NCBI GenBank assembly: GCA_001823535.1
Contig: MHUT01000006.1
Span: forward strand, 27,631 to 91,630
Length of the DNA stretch: 64,000 bases
Origin: Candidatus Yonathbacteria bacterium RIFCSPHIGHO2_02_FULL_44_14
Lineage (GTDB): Bacteria > Patescibacteriota > Minisyncoccia > Phycocordibacterales > UBA1550
Reading direction: 5' to 3'
Below, one piece after another: positions 3,885 to 63,684 of this stretch. Made by a program: the position numbers and the translations under genes. The notes below the pieces were generated by a model. It was not told the DNA's origin, did no database searches, and saw only the letters and a list, made by a program, of their open reading frames with translations. Within the stretch, counting starts at the first letter, position 1; the number at the start of each line of letters is the position of its first letter.

Positions 3885-3910
3885 TATTGAAAAAATAGGA
3901 GATACATATA

Positions 3911-4651
3911 ATGACTCACGATTATCAAATTAAAACAGATGTATTTGAAGGACCACTTGAGCTCTTGCTTGACCTTGTAGAGAAGCGCAAACTTTTTATC
4001 AACGAGATTTCGCTTGCTCAGGTTGCGGATGATTACATCGCGCATCTAAAGGAGTTTGAAAAAATGCCCGTGGATTTTGTATCCAACTTCCTTATTGTTG
4101 CGGCAACACTTATCCTCATTAAGTCAAAATCACTCTTACCAACACTTTCTTTAACAGAAGAAGAAACCCATGACATTGATGAACTTGAGAGACGTCTTAA
4201 GGAGTACCAGAAAATCCGCGAGCTGTCCGTGCATGTAAAGCAAATGTTTGGCGCGAAAATCTCTTTTCCAAAAGGGCAATCTCGAGAGCGCGAAGCAGTG
4301 TTTACACCAAGCGAAGAAATTACTGTTAAAAGTATTTTTTCGGCAGTGAAGGATGTTATTCTTCATTTCCCGAAAAAAATCACGCTTCCAAAAGTTGTAG
4401 TGAAAAAAGTTATCTCGCTTGAGGATATGATGGACAGGCTAACTACACGTATTACAGGAAGCTTGAAAATGAGCTTTCGTGATTTCGCCGGCGTAGGGAA
4501 GGAGGAGAAAGTAAATATTATCGTGAGTTTCCTCGCCATGCTTGAATTGGTTAAGCAGGGGATGATCGCCGTAACGCAAGGATCTCATGGCGATGATATT
4601 GAAATCGAAACTAAAGTGCTCGAGACGCCAAATTACGGCGCTTCCACATAG
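3911..4651 (+). CDS. scpA: Segregation and condensation protein A
   Basis: N-terminal LLDLVEKRKLFINEISLAQVADDY kleisin signature. About 246 aa. Confidence 0.85.
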   Translation: MTHDYQIKTDVFEGPLELLLDLVEKRKLFINEISLAQVADDYIAHLKEFEKMPVDFVSNFLIVAATLILIKSKSLLPTLSLTEEETHDIDELERRLKEYQKIRELSVHVKQMFGAKISFPKGQSREREAVFTPSEEITVKSIFSAVKDVILHFPKKITLPKVVVKKVISLEDMMDRLTTRITGSLKMSFRDFAGVGKEEKVNIIVSFLAMLELVKQGMIAVTQGSHGDDIEIETKVLETPNYGAST

Positions 4652-4690
4652 TCCCCAATCCTGATATTCGGTTTTTCGACTAATCCTTTA

Positions 4691-4732
4691 CTATGTACCT
4701 ATTTTGCTCGATAGAGCAAAATAGGTACATAG
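4691..4732. repeat. Perfect 19-bp inverted repeat with a 4-nt loop, between scpA and scpB
   Basis: ctatgtacctattttgctc-gata-gagcaaaataggtacatag. No downstream T-run. Confidence 0.7.
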
Positions 4733-4767
4733 TTGGTGCATCATGAGCATGTGATACAATAGGCTAT

Positions 4768-5322
4768 ATGGAACTTTCCCAACAAATCGAAGCATTATTA
4801 TTTTTTAAGGGCGAGCCAGTAACGGTAGCTTTTTTGGCTAAAACCCTTGGTGTATCAGATGACGACGTGATGCAGGGGCTTCTTGGGCTTGAGCAGGCAC
4901 TTCTGGGACGCGGAATTATCCTGATGCAAAATGCCGGTGAATATATGTTGGGAACGACACCGCAAATGGGTCAGACCATAGAAGAGAAGCTTCTAAAAGA
5001 AGAACTTGCAAAGGATCTGGGGAAGGCCGGTCTTGAGACACTCGCGACCGTGCTTTACCGAGGGCCGATTTTGAGGAGCGAGATCAACTATCTGCGCGGA
5101 GTGAATTCAAATTATATTTTGCGCAACCTGCTCATCCGCGGACTTATTGAAAAAGTTGATCAAGGTGGACGAAGCACCGTGTATCAGCCAACATTCGAGC
5201 TATTGTCGTATATGGGAGTTAGTAAAGTGTCGGATTTGCCAGGGTACGATGATGCAAACAAGGATATTGAGGAGTTTAAAGAAGCAGAAAAAACAACAGA
5301 CCATGAACACGAAAAGGGATAG
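4768..5322 (+). CDS. scpB: Segregation and condensation protein B
   Basis: Tandem winged-helix pattern EALLFFKGEPV...LG; follows scpA. Confidence 0.85.
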   Translation: MELSQQIEALLFFKGEPVTVAFLAKTLGVSDDDVMQGLLGLEQALLGRGIILMQNAGEYMLGTTPQMGQTIEEKLLKEELAKDLGKAGLETLATVLYRGPILRSEINYLRGVNSNYILRNLLIRGLIEKVDQGGRSTVYQPTFELLSYMGVSKVSDLPGYDDANKDIEEFKEAEKTTDHEHEKG

Positions 5323-6286
5323 AGAAAAAATTATCACAAAGCGCGCTCACGCGCTTTTGGTCGTGCTCGGTGGCGGGGCAGGTATCGCAATCCTTATGCA
5401 AGGGCTGCTCTCTTTTGCCCTGCCAACCTCGGCAGAATCAGTTATGGATGTACCGAAGGAAATTCGTTCTGCAACTACTACAAACCCTTTTGAAAATATT
5501 TCCATTGAGGCACGTGCAGTATACGTCTTTCGTTTAAATACCAGCACTGTATTATATGCCAAAAATGAAAATGAAAAACTTCCTCTTGCGTCGATTACAA
5601 AACTCATGACCGCACTTGTTGCGCGAGAATATTTTAGCGAAAGTGCAGCAATGACTCTTTCGTCTGATGATATTTCAGCGGAAGGAGATTCGGGACTTCG
5701 CGTTGGAGAAAGATGGAGATTTGGAGATTTGCTTAACGTGATGCTGCTCGTTTCTTCAAACGATGCCGCGCATGCAGTTGCTAGTTTTGTGGGGTCGGAA
5801 GGTAGAGTCTCTCAAGGTATTAATACCACCCTCGCGCGAGCCAGCTTTGTGCAGATGATGAACGAAAAAGCACTTGCCTTCAAGTTTGAGCAAATGCAGT
5901 TTTTTAATGAGTCGGGGCTTGATGTGAGTATGACGCAAAACGGCGGATATGGTTCTGCGCGCAATGTCGCAGAACTTTTTGCTGAATTATGGAAAAAATA
6001 TCCCGAGACTGTTGAGATAACCGCACATAAAGACGCACGCATTTTTTCCCAGGACAGCATTGCACATATTTTGCCAAACACAAACGAAATAGTCGGGCAT
6101 ATCCCCGGACTCGTTGCCTCAAAGACTGGCTTTACGGACATTTCGGGGGGCAATTTGGCAGTTATTTTTGATCGGGGGATAGGTGACCCTGTCGCCGTGG
6201 TTGTTCTTGGGTCGAGCTATAAGGGACGTTTTGTTGACGTGCAAAAGCTTATCACTGCAACACTAAATTCTATTCAAAACAACTAA
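5303..6286 (+). CDS. D-alanyl-D-alanine carboxypeptidase (S11, PBP5/6-like)
   Basis: SxxK (ASITK), SxN (SSND) and KTG (KTGFT) motifs; N-terminal TM anchor. Start reassigned to ATG 5303, so the upstream ORF extension overlapping scpB is discarded. Confidence 0.8.
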   Translation: MNTKRDREKIITKRAHALLVVLGGGAGIAILMQGLLSFALPTSAESVMDVPKEIRSATTTNPFENISIEARAVYVFRLNTSTVLYAKNENEKLPLASITKLMTALVAREYFSESAAMTLSSDDISAEGDSGLRVGERWRFGDLLNVMLLVSSNDAAHAVASFVGSEGRVSQGINTTLARASFVQMMNEKALAFKFEQMQFFNESGLDVSMTQNGGYGSARNVAELFAELWKKYPETVEITAHKDARIFSQDSIAHILPNTNEIVGHIPGLVASKTGFTDISGGNLAVIFDRGIGDPVAVVVLGSSYKGRFVDVQKLITATLNSIQNN

Positions 6287-6294
6287 ACGTCTAT

Positions 6295-6323
6295 TTGCGA
6301 TACTCATCGTTTGGCGATATAAT
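6295..6323 (+). promoter_or_regulatory. Sigma70-like promoter upstream of mraY (TTGCGA-17 nt-TATAAT)
   Basis: ttgcga at 6295-6300 and tataat at 6318-6323, 12 nt before the mraY ATG region. Confidence 0.5.
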
Positions 6324-6334
6324 GAGGGCATATT

Positions 6335-7390
6335 ATGCTAATTGATGTTGTTAAAATCCTTCTTCCCACCGCTACTGCCTTCTTTGTTGGTATCGCAATA
6401 ACCCCATTTCTTACGGATTTTCTTTATCACCATAAGATGTGGAAGAAGTCGAGTGTTAAGCTCACGATGGACGGTAGGGAAGCGACCATCTCGGGCAAGC
6501 TTCACAATGATGAAGAGCGAAAAACCCCGCGCATGGGTGGGGTGGTAGTGTGGGGGTCGGTTTTTATCACTGCGTTTTTGTTTTTTATACTGGCAGCAAT
6601 TTTTCCAGACAGTTTTTTTGCTAAACTCTCATTTCTCTCACGTGAGCAGACCTGGCTCCCACTCTTTACACTTATTGCTGGCGCACTTTTTGGTCTTATT
6701 GATGATTATCTTGTTTGTCGTGAATCAGGCACCTATGCGGGTGGCGGTCTATCTCTCCGTGTAAGACTTGCTTTTGTATTTTTTCTTGCGACAGCAGGTG
6801 CGTGGTGGTTTTATGTAAAGCTGGGGATGGATATCGTACATGTGCCGTTTGTCGGGGATGTGTATTTGGGAGTGTGGTTTATTCCACTATTCATTATTTT
6901 TATGATTGGTATTTATTCCGGCGGGATTATAGACGGTGTTGACGGGCTCTCGGGCGGTGTTTTTGCGTCAATTTTTACCGCGTACGCGGTCATTGCTTTC
7001 GCGCAAGGGCAAATTGACCTTGCGGCATTTTCGAGTGTGCTCGTCGGAGGACTCCTCGCGTTCCTTTGGTTTAATATACCACCCGCACGTTTTTTTAATT
7101 CTGAAACAGGAACAATGGCTCTCACGACCGCCCTTACTGTTGTTGCTTTTTTAACGAAGGCAGTCCTCGTTCTTCCAATCATTGCATTTATTCTTATTGC
7201 AACAAGCGCCTCTAGTCTGATTCAGATTCTTTCAAAAAGATATCGCGGTGGCAAAAAGGTATTTTTGGTAGCACCGCTACACAATCATTTTCAAGCACTC
7301 GGCTGGCCGCCATACAAGGTGACAATGCGATATTGGGTCATATCAGTTGTACTCGCTCTTGTTGGTACAATAATCGCACTGGTAGGATAA
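6335..7390 (+). CDS. mraY: Phospho-N-acetylmuramoyl-pentapeptide transferase
   Basis: LIDDYLV, GIIDGVDGLSGG and APLHNHFQALGW motifs; multi-TM. Confidence 0.85.
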   Translation: MLIDVVKILLPTATAFFVGIAITPFLTDFLYHHKMWKKSSVKLTMDGREATISGKLHNDEERKTPRMGGVVVWGSVFITAFLFFILAAIFPDSFFAKLSFLSREQTWLPLFTLIAGALFGLIDDYLVCRESGTYAGGGLSLRVRLAFVFFLATAGAWWFYVKLGMDIVHVPFVGDVYLGVWFIPLFIIFMIGIYSGGIIDGVDGLSGGVFASIFTAYAVIAFAQGQIDLAAFSSVLVGGLLAFLWFNIPPARFFNSETGTMALTTALTVVAFLTKAVLVLPIIAFILIATSASSLIQILSKRYRGGKKVFLVAPLHNHFQALGWPPYKVTMRYWVISVVLALVGTIIALVG

Positions 7391-7420
7391 TTGCCTAGTG
7401 ATTTGATGACATAAGATGAT

Positions 7421-8524
7421 ATGAAAAAAAATCAATCAATTGATAAAATATTTCTCAGCATCACTGCTCTCCTTGCGTTGGTTGGGCTTTTTGTTTTCAC
7501 ATCTGCTTCATTTGGGCTTTTTGCGCGCAAGGGATTTTCTTTGCAGGATCTCCTGTTTGATCAGGTAGTTCTTGGACTTTTTTTGGGAATAATTGTTGCA
7601 GCAGTAGTTGCGTTCAAGTTTCCATTAAAATTCTTGCAGGCCAACGCACTCTATTTTTTTATAGGTTCGATTGTTATTTCTTTGTTCGTTTTTGTGCCTG
7701 GGGTGGGGCTTGAGCACGGTGGAGCACATAGATGGATCGATCTCGGAATAATTTCGTTTCAACCCTCAGAGCTTCTCAAGCTTGGCACGATTATCTATTT
7801 TGCCGCACTCCTGCCCCTCTTTAGAGAGCGTATCGGTACGTTGAAGTATGCTATTGGCGTCACGGCAGGAATACTCTTTTTCCCCGCGGTAATTTTGCTT
7901 CTGGAGCCCGACACAGGAACATTTGCGGTAGTTTTTACGGCAATAACAGCAATGCTCCTTGCGGCTGGCATGAAGATTCGTCATTTTGTACTTATTATTG
8001 TCGTCAGCATCCTTGCCATCGGCATTTTGGCAATCGCGCGTCCGTATGTGGGTGAGCGCTTACTTACGTATCTTGACCCATCGCGTGACCCGCAGGGAGC
8101 AAGCTACCAGATTCAGAAATCACTTCTTGCCATCGGCTCAGGCGGTATAACCGGGCGGGGGTTTGGTCAAAGTATTCAGAAATTCGGATCTCTTCCCGAG
8201 CCGACTGGCGACTCAATTTTTGCAGTAGTGGGGGAGGAGTTCGGATTTATTGGAGGGTCGACAATCGTAATTTTATTCCTATTGTTTGGCGTTCGGGGAA
8301 TCCAAATAGCGCGTCGCGCCCCAGATATGTTTGAATCGCTTTTAGCCGTCGGAATTGTTATACTGATAATATCGCAGTCATTTGCGAATATCGCAGCGAT
8401 GCTCGGACTTATACCGCTTACGGGAGTGCCGCTTGTTTTTGTGAGTCATGGCGGCACTGCGCTCCTTTTCGCTTTCCTCGAAGTCGGCATTCTCCTTAAT
8501 ATTTCTAAATTATCAAAAGCATGA
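7421..8524 (+). CDS. ftsW: SEDS-family peptidoglycan glycosyltransferase (FtsW/RodA)
   Basis: 10-TM profile with PSELLKL and VSHGGTALL motifs. Lies between mraY and murG. Confidence 0.8.
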   Translation: MKKNQSIDKIFLSITALLALVGLFVFTSASFGLFARKGFSLQDLLFDQVVLGLFLGIIVAAVVAFKFPLKFLQANALYFFIGSIVISLFVFVPGVGLEHGGAHRWIDLGIISFQPSELLKLGTIIYFAALLPLFRERIGTLKYAIGVTAGILFFPAVILLLEPDTGTFAVVFTAITAMLLAAGMKIRHFVLIIVVSILAIGILAIARPYVGERLLTYLDPSRDPQGASYQIQKSLLAIGSGGITGRGFGQSIQKFGSLPEPTGDSIFAVVGEEFGFIGGSTIVILFLLFGVRGIQIARRAPDMFESLLAVGIVILIISQSFANIAAMLGLIPLTGVPLVFVSHGGTALLFAFLEVGILLNISKLSKA

Positions 8525-9648
8525 AAATTCTTTTTACCGGAGGCGGTAGCGGCGGACATTTTTATCCGATTATTGCCGTTGCTGAAAAATTAAATAAGAT
8601 GCTTGATCGCGAAAAAATGGCGAGCGCAGAGCTTTACTACATGTCGACCGAACCTTATAACGAAAGGCTATTGTATGACAATAAAATAAAATTCAAACGG
8701 GTGACAGCAGGAAAAATGCGCGCATATTTCTCCATTCAAAACTTCTTTGATATATGGAAGACCAGCTGGGGCATTTTCAAGGCGCTTTTTCAACTTTTTG
8801 CATTGTATCCCGATGTTATTTTTGGAAAAGGAGGATTTCCGAGTTTCCCCGTTCTTTTTGCCGCCCGCCTTTTTCGCATCCCAGTGATTATTCACGAATC
8901 AGACAGTGTCCCCGGACGCGTAAACGCATGGGCGGGGAAATTTGCACAAAAAATAGCGATCTCTTATGCTGAGGCAGCGCAGTTTTTCCCCGAAGGCCGC
9001 ACGGCGCTTACGGGAAACCCGATTCGAGAAGAAGTTCTTCGACCATCAGGGAAGGAGGCGTTTAAAGAGCTTGGGCTGGATCCAAATATTCCAGTACTTC
9101 TTGTTCTTGGTGGTTCTCAAGGTGCGCGCGCTATCAACAATCAAATGGAGACGCTTGCGCCGCGGCTTGTAGAAAAATACCAAATTATTCATCAAGCGGG
9201 TGAAGTAAATATGGCCGAAGTCCAGACTACCGTGAACGGTCTTTTGGGAGGCAATCCAAATGCATCACGTTACCACATTTATGGATACATGGGTTCTGAA
9301 ACAATGAAGCTTTCCGCTGAGGCGACTACTGTTGTTGTGTCCCGCGCTGGGTCTGCGATTTTTGAAATTGCGGCGTGGGGCATACCCGCAATACTTATTC
9401 CGATTGCAAACCATGTTGGCGATCATCAACGGAAAAATGCGTTTGCTTATGCGCGGTCGGGTGGTGCGGTGGTTATAGAAGAGGCAAATCTCGGACCAAA
9501 TATTTTGCTGTCAGAAATAGAAAATTTAATGCAAGATGAGAATAAACGTGCTGTAATGAAAGAATCGGCTAAAGTATTTGCGCGTACCGATGCGGCCGAA
9601 AAAATTGCCGAGCAGATTATTGCGGTTCTTTTGCGGCATCAGATTTAA
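8521..9648 (+). CDS. murG: UDP-GlcNAc--undecaprenyl-PP-MurNAc-pentapeptide GlcNAc transferase
   Basis: N-terminal MKILFTGGGSGGHFYPIIAVAEKL; GT28 architecture. ATGA overlap with the ftsW stop. Confidence 0.85.
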   Translation: MKILFTGGGSGGHFYPIIAVAEKLNKMLDREKMASAELYYMSTEPYNERLLYDNKIKFKRVTAGKMRAYFSIQNFFDIWKTSWGIFKALFQLFALYPDVIFGKGGFPSFPVLFAARLFRIPVIIHESDSVPGRVNAWAGKFAQKIAISYAEAAQFFPEGRTALTGNPIREEVLRPSGKEAFKELGLDPNIPVLLVLGGSQGARAINNQMETLAPRLVEKYQIIHQAGEVNMAEVQTTVNGLLGGNPNASRYHIYGYMGSETMKLSAEATTVVVSRAGSAIFEIAAWGIPAILIPIANHVGDHQRKNAFAYARSGGAVVIEEANLGPNILLSEIENLMQDENKRAVMKESAKVFARTDAAEKIAEQIIAVLLRHQI

Positions 9649-9752
9649 GAATAGAAGCTGCGCGATATCTTCTTGTGTCGTGTTGCCGGCTTAGGTACCA
9701 TGTGTCTCATAGCAGAGCGCGCGATAATACTCGTTTGCTACAATAAAAAAAT

Positions 9753-11096
9753 ATGACGAAAGTAATCACAAGATTTGCACCATCACCGACAGGGGTACTC
9801 CATATTGGATCCGTGCGCACCGCACTTTATTCCTGGCTCTATGCAAGGCAAAATAACGGCAAGTTTATCCTGCGTATCGAGGATACCGATAAAGAGCGTT
9901 CAAAAAAGGAATATGAAGATAATATTATTGATGGGTTAGAGTGGCTCGGGCTCACTCACGATGAGTTTTATCGTCAATCGGACCGCTCTGATGTTTATAA
10001 AAGGCATCTTCTCGCGCTTATTGCAGACGGGACTGCGTATGTTTCAAAAGAAGAACCAAAGGAACTAGGTGAGCGTTCCGAAGTGATTCGCTTCAAAAAT
10101 CCCAACAGAGTGGTCACTTTTCACGACGTAGCACGCGGTGATATTTCATTCGACACGACAGAGCTCGGCGATTTTGTGATTGCAAAGGATTTTGAATCAC
10201 CACTTTATCATTTCGCGGTCGTGGTGGATGATTTTGAAATGCGAGTTACTCATGTAATTCGTGGCGACGATGCTATCTCGAATACACCGCGACAAATTCT
10301 TATTCAAGAGGCGCTTGGTGCTCCTCGTCCTGTATATACGCATTTGCCTATGATCCTTGCGCCTGATAAATCAAAACTATCCAAGCGTCATGGCGCACTT
10401 GCGGTGACGGAATATCGCGAAGAGGGATATTTGCCGGAGGCAATCCTTAACTTTGTGGCACTCATGGGCTGGAATCCGGGCAATGACAAAGAAATTATTT
10501 CTCTTGATGAGATGATCATGCTCTTTAAACTCGAAAAGATTCAAAAAGGGGCTGCTGTTTTTAATATTGATAAATTAAAGTGGCTTAATAAACACTACAT
10601 AAAACTTCTTCCTGCTGAAAAAGCGGGTAAGGAGATTCTCGCGCGATTTCCTGAAATGTTACGCATAAAGGCGGAAGATAACTCAGAAATTTTTTCAAAA
10701 ATTATTGTTGTCATACTTGATCATATTTCAACGTTTGGCGAAGTACGCTTTTTTGCGGAGGCAGGGGAGTATAGGTATTTTTTCGAGGATCCTATTTACC
10801 CGCGCGAGGCACTCTTGTGGAAGGACGAGCAGGAGCCCACACGAGCGGCAGAAAAATTAGAGAAAGTTCTTGTGCTTCTTGAGGAAATTGATGATGTGTT
10901 TTTTACGCCTGAAACTATAAAAACTGCTATTTGGGACTACGCAACCGAAGCGGGGCGGGGGAGTGTCCTTTGGCCGATGCGCTACGCTCTCTCTGGTCGC
11001 GATAAATCCCCAGACCCATTTATACTATCGAGTATTCTGGGGAAAGAAGCAACGATTCGTCGCATTGAAAATGCGATAAAATTGCTTTTAGGATAA
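9753..11096 (+). CDS. gltX: Glutamate--tRNA ligase
   Basis: RFAPSPTGVLHIGSVRTALYSW...RIEDTD and KLSKRHG motifs. Confidence 0.9.
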   Translation: MTKVITRFAPSPTGVLHIGSVRTALYSWLYARQNNGKFILRIEDTDKERSKKEYEDNIIDGLEWLGLTHDEFYRQSDRSDVYKRHLLALIADGTAYVSKEEPKELGERSEVIRFKNPNRVVTFHDVARGDISFDTTELGDFVIAKDFESPLYHFAVVVDDFEMRVTHVIRGDDAISNTPRQILIQEALGAPRPVYTHLPMILAPDKSKLSKRHGALAVTEYREEGYLPEAILNFVALMGWNPGNDKEIISLDEMIMLFKLEKIQKGAAVFNIDKLKWLNKHYIKLLPAEKAGKEILARFPEMLRIKAEDNSEIFSKIIVVILDHISTFGEVRFFAEAGEYRYFFEDPIYPREALLWKDEQEPTRAAEKLEKVLVLLEEIDDVFFTPETIKTAIWDYATEAGRGSVLWPMRYALSGRDKSPDPFILSSILGKEATIRRIENAIKLLLG

Positions 11097-11111: not shown

Positions 11112-12395
11112 ATGCGCAAAATTATTTACCAATTCACCATTTTTATATTCATCGGTATAGTGGCATTGGTCACGGATTCTTTTGTTTTTGCTCAAACTGT
11201 AGATGAGTTGGAGAGAAAAATTGCATCACAAACAACTCTTATCCAAAAACTTGAGCAAGAGATTCGGCAATATCAAGGTGACTTAGCAACACTAGCTACG
11301 AAGAAAAAAACACTGAAAAATGCTATCGCAGCCCTTGAAGTTACGCGCAAAAAACTTGAGGCAGACATTAAACTAACACAAACAAAGGTCGACACGACAG
11401 ATTTAAAAATTCGCCAACTTGGTTCAGAAATATCCTACAAAGAAAATGAGATAAATGTGCGCAAGGCAGCCCTCAAGGAGGCGCTCCTTGAGATGTATGA
11501 GAGCGACGAGCAGTCATTGGCACAAATTGCGTTGTCTAACGAAAGTTTTTCCGGGTTATGGAATGACATTGAAACACTGGAACAATTTAGTTCTAGTGTG
11601 ACTGAAAATGTTGAGTTGATAAAGTCTCTCAAAGCAGATCTGGAACAAAAAAACAAAGTGAAGCAAAATGAAAAAGGAAAACTTTTAGGACTCAAAGAGG
11701 AACTTGGTGATCAGAAGAAAATAACTGAGGATAATAAAAAGCAGACGACGAAACTCTTGACTCAAACAAGCAATCAAGAATCAAAATATCAGCAGATTCT
11801 TAAGGACAAGCTCGCGCTTAAGGAGGCTCTTGAAAAAGAACTTCGTGAATATGAATCAACCTTGAAGTTCATTCTTGATCCTTCGTCGATTCCTCCACGT
11901 GGCACAAAAGTTCTTGCTTTACCCGTTGATAATTATCGTATTACTCAATATTTCGGAAATACTGAATTCGCAAAAAGTGGCGCATATAATGGTAGCGGAC
12001 ACAACGGCATAGATTTTGGAGTATCGACAGGGACGCGCATAAAAGCGATGCTTTCAGGTGTCGTGGTTGGCACAGGGAATACGGATCTATATCCCGGGTG
12101 CTATTCGTACGGAAAATGGGTGCTTGTAAAGCACGCGAACGGACTCTCTACCCTCTATGGGCACCTCTCGCAGATCAAGGTATCGAACGGACAGTCAGTT
12201 GGTACTGGAGATCTTTTGGGCTACAGCGGTAACACTGGATACAGCACCGGCCCGCATTTGCACTTAACGGTATTCGCAAGTGCCGCAGTTAATGTTGTTC
12301 GTCTTGGAGATATCAAAAAGTCTACCAATTGCGCGAATGCATCAATTCCTGTTGCCGCCCTCAACGCATATCTTAACCCAATGGATTACTTATAA
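11112..12395 (+). CDS. M23 family peptidase with N-terminal coiled coil (EnvC-like)
   Basis: Long heptad-rich N-terminus. C-terminal GHNGIDFGVSTGTRIKA...HLHLTV LytM motifs. Confidence 0.8.
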   Translation: MRKIIYQFTIFIFIGIVALVTDSFVFAQTVDELERKIASQTTLIQKLEQEIRQYQGDLATLATKKKTLKNAIAALEVTRKKLEADIKLTQTKVDTTDLKIRQLGSEISYKENEINVRKAALKEALLEMYESDEQSLAQIALSNESFSGLWNDIETLEQFSSSVTENVELIKSLKADLEQKNKVKQNEKGKLLGLKEELGDQKKITEDNKKQTTKLLTQTSNQESKYQQILKDKLALKEALEKELREYESTLKFILDPSSIPPRGTKVLALPVDNYRITQYFGNTEFAKSGAYNGSGHNGIDFGVSTGTRIKAMLSGVVVGTGNTDLYPGCYSYGKWVLVKHANGLSTLYGHLSQIKVSNGQSVGTGDLLGYSGNTGYSTGPHLHLTVFASAAVNVVRLGDIKKSTNCANASIPVAALNAYLNPMDYL

Positions 12396-12416
12396 AAAAC
12401 GAGGTACAATTGCCAT

Positions 12417-12632
12417 ATGAAAAAACCCTCACAAAAGCGCGGATTCATGCAAATTGTGCTTTTGGCAATTATTATCATTGCAGCACTTGGATATTTTAAT
12501 ATTGACCTGCGCACTGTTATCGAAAGCCCAATAATTCAAAAGATTTGGAATATATTTGTAGTTGGGTGGAAGACATACTTGCAGCCGTTTGTTATGTACC
12601 TTTGGACGAGCTTCAATGGGCTTTCAAAATAG
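12417..12632 (+). CDS. Hypothetical small membrane protein (71 aa)
   Basis: One clear TM helix and a modest RBS. No homology recognised. Confidence 0.3.
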   Translation: MKKPSQKRGFMQIVLLAIIIIAALGYFNIDLRTVIESPIIQKIWNIFVVGWKTYLQPFVMYLWTSFNGLSK

Positions 12633-12781
12633 GCCACTGTTTGCGTTCAAAAGTGAGTATTTTTACCCACAATAATATTATAGATAACTTCCTTAATCCA
12701 TTCTATAGTCGTAAAAGATATATTGTGCGACGTGCGTCTAAATCATTTTTTAAGGCATACCCCCACTAATTAACAGACTAT

Positions 12782-13531
12782 TTATTGTTGTGATATAAAT
12801 TTCAGAGTCGACGTAAATAATTCTTTTTTTGCAGCACTCGTGCCAAACATATGCCCAGTGTTCTTTATTATTTTTAATCGTTTTTTTTCAGTAGAGTTAT
12901 CAAAGTAATACCTTGTATTATCACGTGCTCCTTTTTCTGCACCAATATATAACTTGTCAACAGTAAGTGTCTTTAGGATTCTATCTATATCATCGTACTT
13001 CTCTAAATCATTCAAAAATTTTCTGGAAAAACTTATTAGAAATTTGTACTTTGTATCTTTTGTTTTGTAAACATTTTTTGCCTCATCAAAAATAAAATTA
13101 CTTTTTATTGAATCAACAATCTGAGATGGCACACTCGGGTCCCACAGGATTAGTTTCTTGAATTTTATCAGCTTGGAGTATTTTTTGTAAAATAAAATTG
13201 AAATGACAGCACTAAAACTATGTCCAATAATAACTACCTCCCTATATTTTTTATTTGAACTTTGAATGCATTGATATAAACTTTTCAAATAAAGGTCAAC
13301 ACTGAGGTCGCCCATTTTGAAACAATCTGATTTATTAAAAATATCATCATTGCAAAAATTTATACGCAGAATATCAAAATCATTTTTTTTAAAAAACTGC
13401 GTCCCCATTTTAACCAAAAAACTATCCTTACCACCAGAAATGCCACTCATGATAACAAGTAAAACATCGCTCCCTTTTTTTTCATAAAGGTCAAAATAAA
13501 CAAATTTATTTTTCAATATATTTAATTTCAT
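12782..13531 (-). CDS. Alpha/beta-fold hydrolase (esterase/lipase-like), strongly AT-rich
   Basis: GHSFS nucleophile elbow (GxSxG) and a C-terminal NTGHMF putative His. Codon usage dominated by K/N/I/F/Y, unlike the flanking genes. Confidence 0.6.
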   Translation of the reverse strand: MKLNILKNKFVYFDLYEKKGSDVLLVIMSGISGGKDSFLVKMGTQFFKKNDFDILRINFCNDDIFNKSDCFKMGDLSVDLYLKSLYQCIQSSNKKYREVVIIGHSFSAVISILFYKKYSKLIKFKKLILWDPSVPSQIVDSIKSNFIFDEAKNVYKTKDTKYKFLISFSRKFLNDLEKYDDIDRILKTLTVDKLYIGAEKGARDNTRYYFDNSTEKKRLKIIKNTGHMFGTSAAKKELFTSTLKFISQQ

Positions 13532-13540
13532 CTAGATAAT

Positions 13541-13573
13541 TAAAATAAAAAGCAAGGGCGTTTTTGCCCTTGC
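13541..13573 (-). terminator. Rho-independent terminator after the DUF397-like gene
   Basis: gcaagggc-gttttt-gcccttgc hairpin followed on the minus strand by a T-run. Confidence 0.6.
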
Positions 13574-13590
13574 TTACCCGGCAAGTACGC

Positions 13591-13854
13591 TCAGAGTTCG
13601 TCAAAATTGAGTTCACCCTCCCGGATACCTTTTGTGAATGCATCCCACTCGTCCTTGTCAAAAGAAAGAGTTGTTTTGTTCGGGTCCCTCGTTGACCTTA
13701 CGAGGAGTCGGCCACCCTCTTTTTTAACGCTTACGCAAGAGAATGAGATCGGCTTCCTTTTTGTAAATGAAGTGGTTTTGAATCCTTCTTCGTCGACCTT
13801 TTGGCCCTGATTGTTGGTTGTAAATGCACAACCGTTTCCAAAAACATCTTTCAT
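13591..13854 (-). CDS. DUF397-like small protein. Start reassigned to ATG 13854; the track start is a GTG at 13866.
   Basis: C-terminal half SCVSVKKEGGRLLVRSTRDPNKTTLSFDKDEWDAFTKGIREGE aligns with the actinobacterial DUF397 consensus. A degenerate N-terminal copy (GNGCAF) precedes it. Own terminator. Confidence 0.55.
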   Translation of the reverse strand: MKDVFGNGCAFTTNNQGQKVDEEGFKTTSFTKRKPISFSCVSVKKEGGRLLVRSTRDPNKTTLSFDKDEWDAFTKGIREGELNFDEL

Positions 13855-13965
13855 AATATACCCCACTTTCTATCAAATGAATTAAGGAAAACTACCACCT
13901 GAAACCTAAAAGGCTTCAATGAAACAGTACCATATAATTAATTGCAAAGCAAGAGCAGAAAACAA

Positions 13966-14057
13966 GTTATCCACACCCTGTGGTTTGCGTAGCATTGCCC
14001 TAAAGCTTGATTGTGCGACGTGGGTATAATAGATTCCACCTAGCTCCCCTTTGCTTG
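13966..14057. repeat. Direct repeat copy 1 (~92 bp), left boundary of the three-gene cassette
   Basis: Near-identical to 16370-16470 apart from two small indels. Overlaps the last 5 codons (QAKGS) and stop of the ATP-grasp gene. Confidence 0.9.
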
Positions 14058-15098
14058 GCTCTGTTTCTTGATGTACGTGTCTACTGCATCGACAAAAATT
14101 CTCTCTGGATTAGGATGTTCACTAATTTTTTCCCAGCCAAGCGTTCCTTTGCGAAAGAAAAATGAAGAATGTTCTACTGCGTACTGCCCAAAACTTAAAA
14201 ATTGAAACTCAATAAGGAAATATTCGTTATCTCTGATTGCGACATCTATAGAAATAAACGGCACATTAAAAAATGTAAAAACCTTATCTGCAAAGTTTAA
14301 AAGATCGTCAGGTACTTCTTCTGGAAACGAGAGGATCCCGCTTCCACTTGCTCGGAAATCTCCCGGCCTGTTTCCCCTCCTGAGCACATAAAATCTATTA
14401 TCGTATATTAAAATTTTATAGTCGTGAGATAAGTCTGAAATAAAATTTTGAACTATAAATTTTCTGCGATAATTTGAGATTGATTTGAACCCTTTTCCAC
14501 TTAGGATGCCATTAAAGAATCTTTTTAAGTTTATAAATGAATAACTTCTTGCTATGTAGCGAGAGGCGTGCAAAGCTTCCTTTTTTGATCGCACAAGCCT
14601 CACTCCGCTACCCTTTGATCCAGATCCTGGCTTTATAACAATCGGAAGCCGGTTCCCGCTAAAAGATCCTTCGAATTCATCGAATGTTCCATATTTTTCT
14701 GAAATAATGTTTTGGATTAATGGGAATCTACTACTATCCCTTAAAATTTCCATGAACACTTTATTATGGTGAGCTCTGAACTTATAAAAATCTGGTATTA
14801 GGATAGCCTTGTTAATTTTAAGCCCTAATAAAATATCTTCAATATAATCCTTATAGCGAAGATCTGGGTCCTCTGCGGATTGATACAACACAAATGATCC
14901 TGCGTATTTATCTGAATGAAAATCAACATTTGAGAATCTCTCAATTTCAACACTGTATCCTCTGTTTTTAAATAAACGCTTCAATTCTGAGGTGTTCATA
15001 CTCCCAGCAACTTCCTTTGTTGATGAATAAAAAGTATTTCGATAATCGAGCAAAATAAAAAGTTTTTTAGTCATTTCTATCCTTAAAAATTTCTTCAA
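14040..15098 (-). CDS. ATP-grasp fold ligase; substrate unknown
   Basis: PIVIKPGSGSKGSGVRL glycine-rich loop. C-terminal ISIDVAIRDNEYFLIEFQF Mg/ATP-binding beta-strands. Its 3' end lies inside repeat copy 1. Confidence 0.7.
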   Translation of the reverse strand: MKKFLRIEMTKKLFILLDYRNTFYSSTKEVAGSMNTSELKRLFKNRGYSVEIERFSNVDFHSDKYAGSFVLYQSAEDPDLRYKDYIEDILLGLKINKAILIPDFYKFRAHHNKVFMEILRDSSRFPLIQNIISEKYGTFDEFEGSFSGNRLPIVIKPGSGSKGSGVRLVRSKKEALHASRYIARSYSFINLKRFFNGILSGKGFKSISNYRRKFIVQNFISDLSHDYKILIYDNRFYVLRRGNRPGDFRASGSGILSFPEEVPDDLLNFADKVFTFFNVPFISIDVAIRDNEYFLIEFQFLSFGQYAVEHSSFFFRKGTLGWEKISEHPNPERIFVDAVDTYIKKQSQAKGS

Positions 15099-15612
15099 AA
15101 AAGATTTGATCCCTCACAATATTGAACGCAGTATTATAGAATTTTATTTCCCCTTTTCTTACTTTATCTACCTGTTCTCTAAGAATTTTTCTTGCAGTTT
15201 CACCCTCAAGCCAAATAACTGAAAGATCGTTCTTTTTTTCGTCCTCGGTCCGCAGGTCCCCATAAGTTTCTTTTTTTGCCTCTACCAAAAAACAAATAGT
15301 TTCGTATTCTTTTGCATCTCTGTCGCGAAACTCATGAATCCGACCAACCTCACGCTCCACATCAACCTCATAACGTATCTCTTCGATACATTCTCTCTTG
15401 ATTTCTTGAATAATATCTGCGCTTTCAGCTCCTCCGCCTGCCAAAAGATAACATTTATGAATAGGGTTTGTAATAAAACCAAACTCCCCTCCCTCATTTT
15501 TCACAAGAGCCTTTACTGTCACCCTTTTTTCGTAATGATCAGGGGTAATGTGTGTCGGTTGAGGGAAAATGTCTTTATCGTGCAATGTAGCTAAATAATA
15601 CATATTACTCAT
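15067..15612 (-). CDS. Nudix-like hydrolase with divergent Nudix box. Start taken at the internal ATG 15612; the 5' ORF extension overlies a terminator hairpin.
   Basis: GGGAESADIIQEIKRECIEEIRY approximates the Nudix box GX5EX7REUXEEXGU with a one-residue shorter spacer. Overlaps the ATP-grasp start by 32 nt. Confidence 0.5.
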   Translation of the reverse strand: MSNMYYLATLHDKDIFPQPTHITPDHYEKRVTVKALVKNEGGEFGFITNPIHKCYLLAGGGAESADIIQEIKRECIEEIRYEVDVEREVGRIHEFRDRDAKEYETICFLVEAKKETYGDLRTEDEKKNDLSVIWLEGETARKILREQVDKVRKGEIKFYNTAFNIVRDQIFFEEIFKDRND

Positions 15613-15620
15613 TCTATCAT

Positions 15621-15656
15621 AAAAATTGGGCTTTCCGGCGGGTGGACGGAAAGCCC
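15621..15656 (-). terminator. Terminator-like hairpin immediately after the histidine phosphatase stop
   Basis: gggctttcc-...-ggaaagccc 9-bp stem, followed on the minus strand by aattttta. Confidence 0.5.
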
Positions 15657-15662
15657 AAAAAA

Positions 15663-16310
15663 TCAAACATTAAAATCAATTTTCGGAAGCGGCTTCTCGA
15701 GGATGAATTGACCGCATCCTGTATTGAAGAGAGCAGCGACGTAGCAATTGGGCGGATTTGCAAAAAAACAAAATTCATCATCAGTGATTGCCAGAAAAGC
15801 TTTCACAATGACTCTTAGGGCAAATCCATGTGTAAAAATTACTACACACTCAGGATGGTCATTGGATGCGCCGTCACTTTTTAATTCCTCTATAAATTGC
15901 TCAATGTCATGCACAAAGTCAGGGGTGTAATCTCCCTGAGGGAATTGGAAGTGTAGTACCCCGATACGATATCTCTCTTTCTCGACCTCCTTAATGGTTT
16001 TTTCGTCTACGTTGCCCCAGTTCAAGTTTCTAATACGTGGTTCAACGGTGACATCAAAATTGACCAAAGGAAAACTCGAACAGAATAATGACATTGTTTG
16101 GTCCGCGCGGTTTGAAGGCGAAGTAATTACCTTTACTCTTTGGTACAAATTTATCTCTTGAGATAAATTCCCTACTATTTCCAAAGCCTGCTTCTTTCCG
16201 GTTGTCGTAATTGAAATTCTACGATCTGGAACAACGCTATGCAAACAAGGGTCAATATCTTCTTCTGATTGCGCGTGCCGAACAAGAAATATACGTTTCA
16301 ACATTCCCAA
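15663..16310 (-). CDS. Histidine phosphatase superfamily protein (phosphoglycerate-mutase-like, branch 1)
   Basis: N-terminal LVRHAQSE (RHG motif) and a later THG motif (IFTHGF). Confidence 0.75.
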   Translation of the reverse strand: MGMLKRIFLVRHAQSEEDIDPCLHSVVPDRRISITTTGKKQALEIVGNLSQEINLYQRVKVITSPSNRADQTMSLFCSSFPLVNFDVTVEPRIRNLNWGNVDEKTIKEVEKERYRIGVLHFQFPQGDYTPDFVHDIEQFIEELKSDGASNDHPECVVIFTHGFALRVIVKAFLAITDDEFCFFANPPNCYVAALFNTGCGQFILEKPLPKIDFNV

Positions 16311-60201: not shown

Positions 60202-61446
60202 TAAATCGCGGTCCAAATCATCAGAATCGGTTCCCCGTGCTTTTTGTGTGATCGCTTTATGAGTTGAACCAAGATAGATTACCCGTTTGCCAAACTTATC
60301 CTCAAGGCAATCAATTTGTTTATGTATTAAACCAAATTTATCGCTTTTAATAGTGCCTCCAAACAAATCTTTTTGTGATATAAAATTTAGCGTAAGATCC
60401 TGCAAGATTGTACCCGTGGTGCGATAGAGAGTGCCTCTCGCGTAAATTTTTTCAAAGTGCAGATGAACGAGAGAAAGTAAAATTTCTGGCGAATTTGAAG
60501 GAACGGGGAGCGTTACTGTAATTGTTATTATTTTGAAATTCTGAGTTTTAAGAAAAATGGAAATCTTCTTTGGCACCAGTCCATAGTACCGTGCCTTTCT
60601 GCAAGCATCCTCTATATGTTTTGAAAACTGTGACCACAAAAAAGTTTTATCATTTGTCGAAGGAGTAAATGTTTTTGTTTTTTGAATCGATGAATAAGCT
60701 GTTTTTGCCTCTGTATCTACTTCCATAACTAAGATCCCGTTGAGCTCCTGCCAAATTGTTTCATATGGCTTCGAAAGGTTCTGTCTGATCCATGAAATAT
60801 CTTTACTGCTAAAATCCAAGGCAGTGTGCACCCCCTTCTTTGTTAATAATTCCGAAGTTTTTGGACCGATACCCCAAATTTTCTCGACAGATTTTTTTGC
60901 AAGAAAGTCCGGCGCTGTATCGCAATCAATTATAGTGAGACCGTTTGGCTTAACCCAGTTTGATGCAACTTTTGCGAGAACTTTCGTCGGCGCGAGGCCT
61001 ATCGATACCGACAGCCCGAGTTCTTCATTTATTTCTGATTTAATTTTTTGAGCAATCTCCCAATAAGTCAGCTTGAGTGTGCGGTCGAGACCAGTGAAAT
61101 CGGCAAAGCATTCATCTATGCTGTATTCTTCTACGCCATAGGCGTACCTGCGTACGATATCGAACATCTGGCTTGAGTATTCGGCATAGGCACGATAGTC
61201 TCCTGGGAGAATTACTACGCATGGAAAATCTCTCTTGATCTTGAATATAGGCATCCCGCGAACAACCCCAAGTGCTTTTGCTTCGTATGACAATGCAGAC
61301 ACAATCCCCCGTTCCTCGCCAGTTACCACAGGAAGACCTTTTAACGATGGATTTTTTGCAATCTCTACACCCACAAAAAAAGCATCTCCGTCGATATGAA
61401 AAATTATCTTAGATTTTGGGATAGGAAGGTCGCTCATCCACCACAT
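60190..61446 (-). CDS. dinB: Y-family DNA polymerase (DinB-like)
   Basis: HIDGDAFF, SIDECFAD, SVSIGLAPTKVLAKVAS. Start codon overlaps the stop of the upstream TVP38 gene (TAATG). Confidence 0.8.
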   Translation of the reverse strand: MWWMSDLPIPKSKIIFHIDGDAFFVGVEIAKNPSLKGLPVVTGEERGIVSALSYEAKALGVVRGMPIFKIKRDFPCVVILPGDYRAYAEYSSQMFDIVRRYAYGVEEYSIDECFADFTGLDRTLKLTYWEIAQKIKSEINEELGLSVSIGLAPTKVLAKVASNWVKPNGLTIIDCDTAPDFLAKKSVEKIWGIGPKTSELLTKKGVHTALDFSSKDISWIRQNLSKPYETIWQELNGILVMEVDTEAKTAYSSIQKTKTFTPSTNDKTFLWSQFSKHIEDACRKARYYGLVPKKISIFLKTQNFKIITITVTLPVPSNSPEILLSLVHLHFEKIYARGTLYRTTGTILQDLTLNFISQKDLFGGTIKSDKFGLIHKQIDCLEDKFGKRVIYLGSTHKAITQKARGTDSDDLDRDLLFL

Positions 61447-62084
61447 TATACCAAATCTGAATGTGTCATACGGAAAGCAACAAATATCAAGGAAAACAAA
61501 ATTCCAACAAGCCCAAAGAATTTCAGCGTATCACCGTATATAACCGCTTCGCTGGCATATGTAGAAATAATTGCAAAAGGGAGTTCTGAAAGAAAAGTGA
61601 TGGCTATGTAAGTTCCCGCAGGGTAACGAATAATGCCAAACGCGTACCCAAGCTCTGCTGGAAGCGCAATACGTAAAAGTAACGCAGTAGTAAAAGTCGT
61701 GCGCTTTTTGACCACGTTGCTCCAATCATCAAGTTTCTCTGTTGATACGAAATAAGAAACAGCCTTATACCCAAAATAGCGTCCAATAAGGTATGCAGTT
61801 ATGTCGCCAATGAACCATCCACAAAGTAAAAATATTATTGTAGGAACAGGCCCCCAAATTACGGTAGCTATCGGTACGAGTGGAATGTTTGTCAGCGGAC
61901 TAATAAGGGCAGCGAGTGCTGATGTCAGCACAAACACAAGAATCGCGAGGAGTTGATTTTGTACTGCGAGCTCATTTAAGTAATCCGCTATTGTGTAAAA
62001 TGTACCTTGTAGAACGCTTGAATACCAAAACAAAAAAGCAATTACTATTGCAATGCATAAGAAAAGAATGAGACGTTTGTTCAT
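61446..62084 (-). CDS. TVP38/TMEM64 (DedA-related) family membrane protein
   Basis: Multi-TM with WGPVPTIIF...GWFIGDITAYLIGRYFG. Confidence 0.6.
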   Translation of the reverse strand: MNKRLILFLCIAIVIAFLFWYSSVLQGTFYTIADYLNELAVQNQLLAILVFVLTSALAALISPLTNIPLVPIATVIWGPVPTIIFLLCGWFIGDITAYLIGRYFGYKAVSYFVSTEKLDDWSNVVKKRTTFTTALLLRIALPAELGYAFGIIRYPAGTYIAITFLSELPFAIISTYASEAVIYGDTLKFFGLVGILFSLIFVAFRMTHSDLV

Positions 62085-62256
62085 AGAATAAGTATAGCAA
62101 GTATTACGCTCATTGGTGTCAAAACCTGTCTAAACTTTGTGGAAATCGTCTTTCGCTTCTTTTGGATTTCAAAAACTCATGGCGGATTTTCTCGAAAACC
62201 CCGTCGCGCCCTATTGCGACGCTCCGCATTTTGGCGAAAAAACGAATTCTACTTTG

Positions 62257-62330
62257 TGGCTGGGAGGCTTGGAATCGAACCAAGATTCTCGACTTCAAAG
62301 GTCGGTGTCCTACCATTAGACGATCTCCCA
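62257..62330 (-). tRNA. tRNA-Gln (anticodon UUG), 74 nt including encoded CCA
   Basis: On the minus strand the acceptor 5' strand TGGGAGA pairs with the 3' strand CCTCCCA (six Watson-Crick pairs, A7:C66 mismatch), with U1:A72 as in bacterial tRNA-Gln. D-arm GTCT/AATGGTA/GGAC, anticodon loop CTTTGAA, T-arm CTTGG-TTCGATT-CCAAG. Confidence 0.8.
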
Positions 62331-62400
62331 AGGTATTATTCAATTTTGCGTACATTTCTTGACTGTGCCAAAAGTATGGCCGAGGCCGCGATTCCGTCTT

Positions 62401-62481
62401 ATGTCTCTATGTGAGACATCGCGACGCGAACTTAAGCTTTTTTATAGTCGAACGCTTCGCTTGTAAAAAACTTAAGTTCGC
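62401..62481. repeat. Two adjacent inverted repeats upstream of tRNA-Gln
   Basis: atgtctc-tatgt-gagacat (62401-62419) and the 17-bp arms gcgaacttaagctttttt / aaaaaacttaagttcgc (62426-62481). Confidence 0.7.
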
Positions 62482-62501
62482 CTACCATTAGACGATCTCC
62501 C
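62481..62501. repeat. Exact 21-nt duplicate of the 5' portion (nt 2-22) of tRNA-Gln, ~150 bp upstream of the intact gene
   Basis: cctaccattagacgatctccc occurs at 62309-62329 (inside the tRNA) and at 62481-62501. Confidence 0.8.
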
Positions 62502-62556
62502 GATGTATTTATTTTTTACAATAATACTTGTGCACAATACACCAAAAAGCTCTCTT

Positions 62557-62608
62557 AGCCAAGTGTCATATATTCGTAGCCATGACTACGAATATATGAC
62601 ACTTGGCT
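62557..62608. repeat. Perfect 23-bp inverted repeat with a 6-nt loop, downstream of dnaX
   Basis: agccaagtgtcatatattcgtag-ccatga-ctacgaatatatgacacttggct. Confidence 0.75.
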
Positions 62609-62649: not shown

Positions 62650-63684
62650 CTACTTTCCTGCTATCCGGAGCAAGGCCAGCTCAAGCGCGAGTCCAGGTAC
62701 AACTGCTACGCGCACACTCTCGTATGCACGGAGTAGTTCGGCAAGCTCCTTTGAAGTGAGGGTTTGAATCGCACTTTTTGCGAGATCCTCAATCAGTGCC
62801 ATATCTTCAGTTGGAAAATCCCCTATCATCTCCTTACGAGATGAAGCGACAAAGCGAAACATCATCACTGCGCGCATTTTACGAAGTAATAAATCAAGAA
62901 AAACTTTTTCTTCCACGCCACGTTCTATTGCGTTCGCAAGTGCTGAAAGCCCCCTTTCAACATCACGTGCAACAATTGCGCGAAGAAAATTATTTACCAG
63001 CCGGCTCTCGGGCGCGCCGGTAACCGCTTCAACTTCCTGCTGCGAAATCTTTTTATCAGATGACGATGCGATAACTTTTTGCAAAATTCCAAGCGTGTCA
63101 CGGAATGAGCCCTCGCCGAGTAGTGCAATGAGGTCGGACGATGCAGGTTCAAGCGCATAGCCTTCTTTTTTTGCAACAGCCTCAACGAGTGTCTTCAATG
63201 TTGTCTGCGAAGGTTTTTCAAAACGAAAACTCTGACAACGCGAAACAATTGTTTCAGGAATTTTATTTTCATCTGTCGTGGCAAGAATGAAGACCACATG
63301 ACGTGGCGGTTCTTCGAGAGTTTTCAAAAGTGCAGGAAATGCTTCGCGTGAAAGCATGTGTGCTTCGTCGATAATGTACACTTTGTATGGCGAGTGCATT
63401 GGCACCGTATGTACAGCATCGCGGAGCGCGCGAATGTCGTCAATGCCACGATTAGACGCAGCATCTATTTCATAAATATCGTCATCATGTGCACCGATAG
63501 CACGGGCAAAAATGCGCGCAATTGACGTCTTCCCCGTACCGCGCGAACCACAAAAAAGATACGCATGACCAATATTTCCTGCCTTAATGGCTCCTAAAAG
63601 CGTTTTTACCACTTGTTCCTGCCCTATTACCTCCTCAAAGGACTTTGGGCGGTATTTGGTATAAAGCGCGAGATTCGAGGACAT
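62650..63684 (-). CDS. dnaX: DNA polymerase III gamma/tau subunit, short form (ATPase domains I-III only)
   Basis: YRPKSFEEVIGQE, GHAYLFCGSRGTGKTSIARIFA Walker A, DEAH-like IIDEAHML, SRC sensor. 344 aa. Confidence 0.85.
   Translation of the reverse strand: MSSNLALYTKYRPKSFEEVIGQEQVVKTLLGAIKAGNIGHAYLFCGSRGTGKTSIARIFARAIGAHDDDIYEIDAASNRGIDDIRALRDAVHTVPMHSPYKVYIIDEAHMLSREAFPALLKTLEEPPRHVVFILATTDENKIPETIVSRCQSFRFEKPSQTTLKTLVEAVAKKEGYALEPASSDLIALLGEGSFRDTLGILQKVIASSSDKKISQQEVEAVTGAPESRLVNNFLRAIVARDVERGLSALANAIERGVEEKVFLDLLLRKMRAVMMFRFVASSRKEMIGDFPTEDMALIEDLAKSAIQTLTSKELAELLRAYESVRVAVVPGLALELALLRIAGK

Follow-up and report, generated by a model that had tools for sequence, protein, structure and literature searches.

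In a 64,000-nucleotide stretch of DNA from a Candidatus Yonathbacteria bacterium, called the window throughout this report, the 5' part of tRNA-Gln is present twice, once in the intact gene and once as an isolated fragment a short way upstream of it. Our main finding is that this fragment is a real, non-random and decayed relic at a tRNA hot spot, and that it belongs to a known kind of feature. We consider it somewhat probable that it is the stump of an older, displaced copy of tRNA-Gln, and that the block of DNA separating it from the working gene was acquired by recombination with a relative's DNA and can be deleted by way of the flanking repeats. A preliminary description, made from the letters of the window, had proposed either a mobility scar or a decayed second tRNA copy. 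What stands of this is a displaced copy, reduced to its stump, along with a polymorphic block that looks acquired; neither an integrase nor the circular (attP-type) junction of an excised element was found.

The window is 100% identical to contig MHUR01000008.1 of assembly GCA_001823495.1 (Candidatus Yonathbacteria, candidate phyla radiation (CPR)/Paceibacterota, Rifle groundwater). We compared it with independent assemblies, collected because their DnaX or DedA protein is identical to that of the window, and with loci of relatives retrieved through DnaX (67-91% amino-acid identity); contigs and loci are referred to here by L numbers.

A partial tRNA-Gln copy and the block behind it

The window holds a single tRNA gene in its 64 kb, tRNA-Gln(UUG), on the minus strand at 62257-62330, recognized by both ARAGORN and Rfam (54.4 bits for the tRNA family); it has a U1-A72 pair and an encoded CCA. 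The 21-mer CCTACCATTAGACGATCTCCC, corresponding to nucleotides 2 to 22 of this tRNA, occurs exactly twice in the window, within the gene at 62309-62329 and, as described previously, upstream of it at 62481-62501. Shuffled windows contained no match to the 21-mer even when up to three mismatches were tolerated, that is, zero matches are expected by chance. The two copies lie on the same strand, spaced by 172 nucleotides from start to start and with 151 bp in between, which agrees with the distance of about 150 bp reported earlier. The reported repeat length of 21 nucleotides is correct for the exact core; the full repeat is longer, covering 29 nucleotides with two mismatches (27/29) and reaching eight nucleotides into the 5' leader, six of which match. 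The proximal copy (62309-62337) includes nucleotides 1 to 22 of the working tRNA and seven nucleotides of its leader; the distal copy (62481-62509) is what we regard as the stump.

The stump is not called as a tRNA by either ARAGORN or Rfam: it comprises nucleotides 2 to 22 only, with no full cloverleaf, and its identity to the tRNA stops at nucleotide 22, in the D arm. The block between the repeats (62331-62480, minus strand) contains only short, spurious open reading frames (ORFs), none of them from a recombinase family, which bears out the earlier remark that no integrase lies there. Reading the sequences revealed no small conserved ORF common to the block in the window and in L033, a relative with the same layout.

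The arrangement is polymorphic within the population. The long allele is found unchanged in at least 13 independently assembled contigs (NCBI, JGI, ENA, Logan), one of them from a strain 99.44% identical to the window (0.56% different elsewhere), and all contigs other than the two that follow carry it. One contig, L005 (ENA ERZ27254762), is 99.94% identical elsewhere and lacks exactly one repeat and the 151-bp block, 172 bp in the alignment. Another, L009 (ERZ27254867), from a second sample, ends at 62482, where the distal core closes and the two alleles part; such a break point is expected of an assembly graph when both alleles are present. As a 21-nucleotide repeat cannot be collapsed at k = 141, we take the short allele as real. 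In this allele the native promoter and leader are fused to the gene, and the tRNA starts with a C, giving a C1-A72 mismatch. Position 1 is a T in the working gene of the window and in all related tRNA-Gln genes found, and a C in the stump and in L005. The short allele would therefore not be an ancestral empty site; the best reading is that it arose from the long allele by deletion, once the stump had mutated. Bacterial GatCAB recognizes tRNA-Gln via U1-A72 (PMC2811023), and the tRNA of the short allele may for this reason be impaired.

Fifteen related loci share a motif of the form TTG(C/G)C(G/T)-N17-TATT(G/C)T, with a spacer ending in CTTTTTGGTG, ahead of tRNA-Gln or of the stump. In the window this conserved, putative native promoter of sigma70 type, P (62534-62562, minus strand; -35 box TTGGCT at 62557-62562, 17-nucleotide spacer, -10 box TATTGT at 62534-62539), precedes the stump and not the working gene; in three loci that have a promoter, leader and tRNA only, the tRNA starts 10-11 nucleotides past the -10 box of P. 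The 32 nucleotides between P and the stump form the distal leader (62502-62533, minus strand), which is unrelated to the distal leader of L033 (z = 0.05, 37.5% identity), shows a weak similarity to the native leaders of L038, L043 and L048 (z about 2.5), and is probably native to the window's own lineage. The working gene has a second sigma70-like promoter, P' (62343-62371, minus strand; TTGGCA, 17 nucleotides, CAAAAT), whose -10 box ends 12 nucleotides before the tRNA; L033 has TTGGGA, 17 nucleotides and TAAAAT at the same position. Two other leaders are homologous to the proximal leader of the window (62331-62370, minus strand): the native one of L034, a relative with a single copy (z = 5.4), and the proximal one of L033 (z = 8.5-9.2); in L033 itself, both leaders match that of L034 (z = 6.8 and 7.5). 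The inner leader of the window is thus of the type of another Yonathbacteria lineage, and the one upstream of the stump of its own type, so that the block most likely came from a relative.

Related loci and the hairpin module

The preliminary description had proposed a comparison of related tRNA-Gln loci, and had taken universal conservation of the arrangement as an argument against a mobility scar. The arrangement is neither universal in relatives nor unique to the window: only some relatives have it. The layout of the window, which we call A-type, recurs in L033 and its conspecifics L113-L116, with the same hairpins and a block that is 82.7-84.7% identical; the stump of L033 is decayed, with 17 of 21 positions kept. 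In a B-type layout, found in L036 (with L129-L131) and in L047, an unrelated block of 69 bp is joined to the stump at the same junction, nucleotides 22/23; here L047 has an exact stump and L036 a decayed one. The B-type block opens with a hairpin (ATGAAACAGT.../...ACTGTTTCAT) that contains one compensatory pair, and closes with a leader that pairs with the tRNA trailer. Indeed, in both loci (L036:5165-5258; L047:5263-5356) the ten nucleotides before the tRNA pair with the ten after it, TATTCATTGC with GCAATGAATA in L036 and TAATTATTGC with GCAATGATTA in L047, with one compensatory change and one G-U, which would extend the acceptor stem in the precursor. Plain loci, consisting of promoter, leader and tRNA only, were seen in L034, L035, L037, L038, L042-L044, L046, L048, L120 and L123.

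Similarity between the window and L033 spans the locus from the start of the stump to the 3' end of the tRNA, and amounts to 86% over 244 nucleotides, compared with 77.9% in the coding DNA of dnaX, where most differences must be synonymous. The B-type loci are likewise 88% identical over 196 nucleotides, compared with 69-72% in coding DNA.

The stump directly abuts an inverted repeat, as reported earlier. This long hairpin, HP1, is a quasi-palindrome of 56 nucleotides (62426-62481, minus strand) with the apex GCGAAGC; its arms, 62426-62442 and 62465-62481, are complementary at 16 of 17 positions with one extra base. It is also present in L033, L036 and L128, with two compensatory pairs and 98% of cells paired. 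A smaller hairpin, HP2 (62401-62419, minus strand), has a 7-bp stem, ATGTCTC/GAGACAT, and a 5-nucleotide loop; it is kept in L033 and L036, again with two compensatory pairs. A profile of HP1 and HP2 together matches the window, the species of L033, L036 (5286-5371) and L128 (2732-2797). In L036 and L128, the module is located about 40 nucleotides downstream of the intact tRNA-Gln, behind a decayed tRNA-like piece. Neither the module nor the block has a second copy in the window, and among the 131 loci compared the module occurs only at tRNA-Gln.

Over the four lineages, 94.5% of cells pair and both sides have changed in 4 of 23 pairs, a compensatory count that 13 of 500 shuffles reached and that fell to 0-1 in slid controls. 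The HP1 stem of L128 keeps all its pairs, with two departures from the commonest pairs, which are G-U on the sense strand only. The fold energy has a z of -4.3. No Rfam family matches the module, the microRNA matches being generic hairpins far under their gathering scores. Templated repair can bring the two arms of a long DNA palindrome back into agreement, and so produce compensatory changes without any function. Given this possibility, and with four sequences at hand, the comparison argues for maintenance of the hairpins, from which an RNA function does not follow.

The suggestion that the inverted repeat serves as a recombinase site was not borne out; the hairpin module kept in four lineages takes its place. 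By inspection, HP1 contained no consensus of an integron attC site or of attachment (att) half-sites of large serine recombinases, and no dyad relation to the tRNA core. Only HP1 taken alone ends in inverted repeats, its 17-nucleotide arms, and the whole HP1-HP2 module has none at its ends; a miniature inverted-repeat transposable element, which would show a target-site duplication and dispersed copies, was rejected, as there was no other copy in the window or among the 131 loci. An intron was rejected as well: its splicing would excise the copy of the 5' exon, which is decayed in L033 and carries C1 in the window. The stretch that follows HP2, AAGACGGAATCGCGGCCTCGGCC (62378-62400, minus strand), is identical in the window and L033, and was considered as a remnant of a tRNA 3' half; its weak likeness reached p = 0.02 against the tRNA of the window and was not significant against others.

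Weighing the origins of the stump

The simplest reading of these comparisons is a transfer of the block between lineages. On this reading, the 21-nucleotide copy would be the 5' stump (nucleotides 2 to 22) of an earlier tRNA-Gln gene, still placed 32 nucleotides behind the native promoter, the one ahead of tRNA-Gln in every related genome examined. A composite allele, made of stump, hairpins, P' with its leader, and tRNA, would have formed in one lineage and then been passed to others. The block would have entered by recombination with a relative's DNA anchored in the conserved tRNA sequence, an exchange that would leave nucleotides 1 to 22 of the tRNA on both sides of it without any need for a site-specific recombinase, and each recipient would keep its own promoter P and distal leader. 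The perfect state of the stump in the window would follow if it were largely the recipient's own former 5' end. As another species carries the composite allele with a decayed stump, this allele would be either old or passed on. The working gene is probably transcribed from P', and the hairpins may stop or process transcripts that start at P. The 21-bp repeats would still recombine, giving the population variant that lacks one repeat and the block (172 bp).

Several points weigh against this history. It leaves the first junction of the stump, at nucleotides 22/23, unexplained, and the presence of an unrelated B-type block at the same position of the stump hints at a site-specific process. An exchange anchored purely in the tRNA does not predict that the repeat should run eight nucleotides (six matching) into the leader. 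The tRNA 3' remnant that might follow HP2 has the weak backing given above (p = 0.02 against the window tRNA, others not significant), the trailer of the working tRNA has no similarity to the hairpin module, and a test for paralogy between P and P' was not significant (p = 0.15-0.8). Selection on an RNA, and not recent exchange, could account for the compensatory changes in the hairpins and for a conservation above that of coding DNA. Finally, the promoter and terminator activities invoked are putative, as they are predicted from sequence.

Four other origins were considered, together with a chance match or an assembly artefact, which we regard as practically negligible: nothing else than the source, a metagenome-assembled genome, speaks for it, and against it stand the zero matches expected by chance, the occurrence of the long allele in at least 13 independent contigs, its recurrence in other species and the k of 141. 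A remnant of a site-specific integrative element, such as a 5'-replacing island or phage cut down to an att-flanked mini-element without integrase, similar to the CIMEs described below, appears unlikely. The stump would then be attL, the 5' end of the tRNA attR, the crossover would lie in the D arm, and the short allele would be the product of excision. The configuration is the one required (criteria in PMC4383910), with direct repeats of a tRNA end flanking an insert and a 5' fragment upstream; moreover, L005 has lost precisely one repeat and the block, two unrelated blocks share one junction at nucleotides 22/23, the block supplies its own promoter as a 5'-replacing element must, and islands are present at the locus in relatives, one of them with a large serine recombinase. 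No integrase was found, however, between the repeats or elsewhere in the 64-kb window, where none of 20 integrase-sized ORFs belongs to a recombinase family or is a homolog of the relative's serine recombinase. The attP-type junction (circular form AATAATACCTT-GGGAGATCGTCTAATGGTAGG-CGAACTTAAG), scanned for as ACCTT, core and CGAAC, was not found in the metagenome and genome contig collections, and no copy of the block was present in the collections searched; the block and the module had no match in viral contigs, phages or plasmids. The attL junction was not found in the metagenome contigs either, a weak negative since this collection does not include the window's own JGI contig; likewise a 23-nucleotide pattern of the window was not found there, though JGI contig 3300002502 has the identical sequence, which makes negatives from this collection weak for this organism. 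An element of 151 bp is far too small unless almost all of it has been deleted, and the same deletion would be needed independently for the 69-bp B-type block. Lastly, a C at position 1 in the short allele is more in keeping with a late deletion than with a restored attB, and the D arm is not among the integrase sublocations known for islands (anticodon loop, T loop and T/acceptor junction; PMC4383910).

A tandem duplication of the tRNA-Gln unit within the lineage, without foreign DNA, the upstream copy having decayed from nucleotide 23 to its terminal hairpins, seems to us decidedly unlikely. It could make the module a 3' part of the tRNA unit, as the module lies about 40 nucleotides downstream of an intact tRNA, beside a decayed tRNA piece, in L036 and L128; tandem full tRNA-Gln genes exist in L115, both leaders of L033 are of the L034 type, and part of the leader belongs to the repeat. 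In the window, however, the two leaders differ in type, and a perfect stump (21/21) beside a diverged leader would need gene conversion. P' as a paralog of P was rejected because P and P' are not significantly similar, and a duplication of the whole unit because the hairpin module bears no relation to the trailer of the working tRNA. We hold it very improbable that stump and hairpins are a functional structured RNA, either a small RNA or a regulatory leader, expressed from the strong native promoter and acting, for example, as a mimic of the tRNA 5' half or as a processing or termination signal for tRNA-Gln. Its position behind the most conserved promoter of the locus, the fold energy (z = -4.3), the four compensatory pairs in two hairpins, the HP1 of L128 that keeps every pair and departs only by sense-strand G-U, and a block more conserved than the coding DNA of dnaX would all suit such an RNA. 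The stump decays in L033 (4 of 21 positions changed) and in L036, however, the module is missing in one strain of the window's own species and in eight or more relatives and stands downstream of the tRNA, in another context, in L036 and L128, it belongs to no Rfam family, and templated correction of palindromes yields compensatory changes without function. Quite improbable, in our view, is a proposal that takes the A-type (151 bp) and B-type (69 bp) blocks together, either as miniature derivatives of an undescribed class of element or nuclease that cuts or recombines tRNA-Gln genes in the D arm, at nucleotides 22/23, and replaces the promoter and 5' end in place of the 3' end, or as a stump-hairpin small RNA made from the native tRNA promoter; it would account for the shared boundary, for blocks that begin with a hairpin bearing compensatory changes, and for conservation above that of coding DNA. 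What goes beyond the ordinary at this locus, and might hide something new, is limited to the boundary that recurs in the D arm and the well conserved hairpin module.

Comparison with described systems places the remaining features. Displaced 5' fragments of tRNA genes (tDNA) are rare among tDNA islands (159 of 3919), and none of the islands is known to use the D arm (PMC4383910). The window resembles the islands found by Islander in that a regenerated tRNA and a cognate fragment in the same orientation flank an insert, with the 5' fragment upstream and the replaced end supplied by the insert; it differs in its insert, 151 bp long and integrase-less where those islands measure 2-200 kb, in the end of its fragment at nucleotide 22, in the D arm, and in a repeat that runs into the leader. 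Cis-mobilizable elements (CIMEs), described in the literature on ICESt1, are integrase-less remnants of integrative elements that are flanked by att sites and can be mobilized in trans; they are kilobases long, and their cognate integrase is known. Direct repeats around recombinase-less DNA and a presence/absence polymorphism are common to them and to the window, whereas for the latter no cognate integrase or element was found and the deletion allele is all that was seen of an excision; this deletion is equally well explained by homologous recombination or slippage of the 21-bp repeats. In the tycheposon model, foreign flanks and partial tRNAs accrete beside island tRNA genes, on the island side and with integrases present (bioRxiv 10.1101/2020.12.28.424599). 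The locus studied here is similar in being a tRNA hot spot with partial tRNA copies, leftover DNA of other hosts and a variability that is highest beside the tRNA, and dissimilar in that the relic lies on the promoter side, where no element is present.

Homing-endonuclease cassettes are known from phage tRNA clusters, as in the case of SegB of T4. The 21-mer has 15 matches in viral contigs, of which 13 are ordinary phage tRNA-Gln genes and two are cassettes (L020:2377-3141 and L021:1-250) that consist of a tRNA-Gln stump to about nucleotide 31, a 208-amino-acid GIY-YIG/NUMOD3-like gene and a different complete tRNA-Gln; L021 has an uninterrupted counterpart in L026. The order of stump, inserted DNA and complete tRNA-Gln is that of the window. 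Their longer stump, GIY-YIG insert and different downstream tRNA set these cassettes apart from the window, which has no endonuclease gene, and we regard them as analogous and unrelated.

The surroundings of tRNA-Gln

The tRNA-Gln gene lies between dnaX (62650-63684; DNA polymerase III gamma/tau, 344 amino acids), its upstream neighbour, and a gene for a VTT/DedA-family membrane protein (61446-62084), its downstream neighbour, all three on the minus strand. A palindrome of 52 nucleotides with perfect 23-nucleotide arms, correctly described before, occupies 62557-62608, 42 nucleotides after the stop codon of dnaX, and its outer six nucleotides double as the -35 box of P. The window's other long perfect hairpins stand 6-64 nucleotides after gene ends, and long hairpins of unrelated sequence follow dnaX at this position in relatives, among them an imperfect palindrome of about 129 nucleotides in L033 (5040-5170) and also in L039, L041 and L128. 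Given its position after dnaX and the similar hairpins at other gene ends, the palindrome fits a terminator-type hairpin of dnaX, which it resembles as a stem-loop shortly after a stop codon. It departs from the usual gene-end terminators in having no U-tract, an unusual length (23 bp), a high AT content and an overlap with the -35 box of the next promoter. On the minus strand no U-tract follows the stem directly (AAGAGAGCTTTTT is found there), and a terminator scan flagged the plus strand only. Of the roles that had been suggested for the palindrome, a dnaX terminator fits best, with the -35 box as an additional content, and nothing ties it to recombination; its arms, which were to be searched for in the genome, do not occur in the rest of the 64-kb window.

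Diverse arrangements were observed on the 3' side of tRNA-Gln. In L123 a 6.5-kb island (3194-9800) directly follows the tRNA, with a trailer that is the same in L035, L037 and L119; it starts with a gene for a large serine recombinase of 492 amino acids, the 3' end of which overlaps the last 31 nucleotides of the tRNA, and no tRNA fragment was detectable at its far end. L113, L114 and L115 encode identical DnaX proteins and have three different sequences right after tRNA-Gln (from about 2962 onward), and L115 has a second complete tRNA-Gln 59 nucleotides downstream, with a leader of the L048 type. Decayed copies of tRNA-Gln lie downstream of the intact gene in L036 (5248-5406), where the same HP1/HP2 module splits the copy between its anticodon and T arms, and in L047 (5346-5483), which has other hairpin-rich inserts and repeated pieces resembling tRNA 3' ends downstream. 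Within the window's own population, contig L016 (1-30; window 62249-62258) carries unrelated sequence up to 8-11 nucleotides past the 3' end of the tRNA, and L010 ends exactly at that 3' end, which suggests a second polymorphism, perhaps an island, on the 3' side.

The promoter side varies as well. L045 has an ORF of 234 amino acids between promoter and tRNA-Gln (4816-5520), in which an N-terminal helix-turn-helix (HTH_23, below cut-off) was the only domain detectable; a LAGLIDADG endonuclease was considered for it and is unsupported. About 190 nucleotides are inserted between promoter and tRNA in L128, and L127 (2597-3435) has genes of the type of cyclic oligonucleotide-based antiphage signalling systems (CBASS; a Cap15 effector and a CD-NTase) directly after dnaX, where others have tRNA-Gln. 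Elsewhere in the window, positions 12000-16000 have a G+C content of 0.37, compared with about 0.44, and include two ORFs without Pfam family (12782-13531 and 14040-15098).

Taken as a whole, the comparison of loci indicates that tRNA-Gln is a recombination hot spot in the Yonathbacteria clade. For annotation, a tDNA fragment without an integrase need not mean an active att site. In Yonathbacteria, a CPR lineage of very small genomes, the single tRNA-Gln locus beside dnaX is rearranged on its promoter side too, besides the usual 3' side. An essential tRNA gene can have its promoter and 5' end exchanged by a composite allele, which can last across species and yet be lost by way of its 21-bp repeats.

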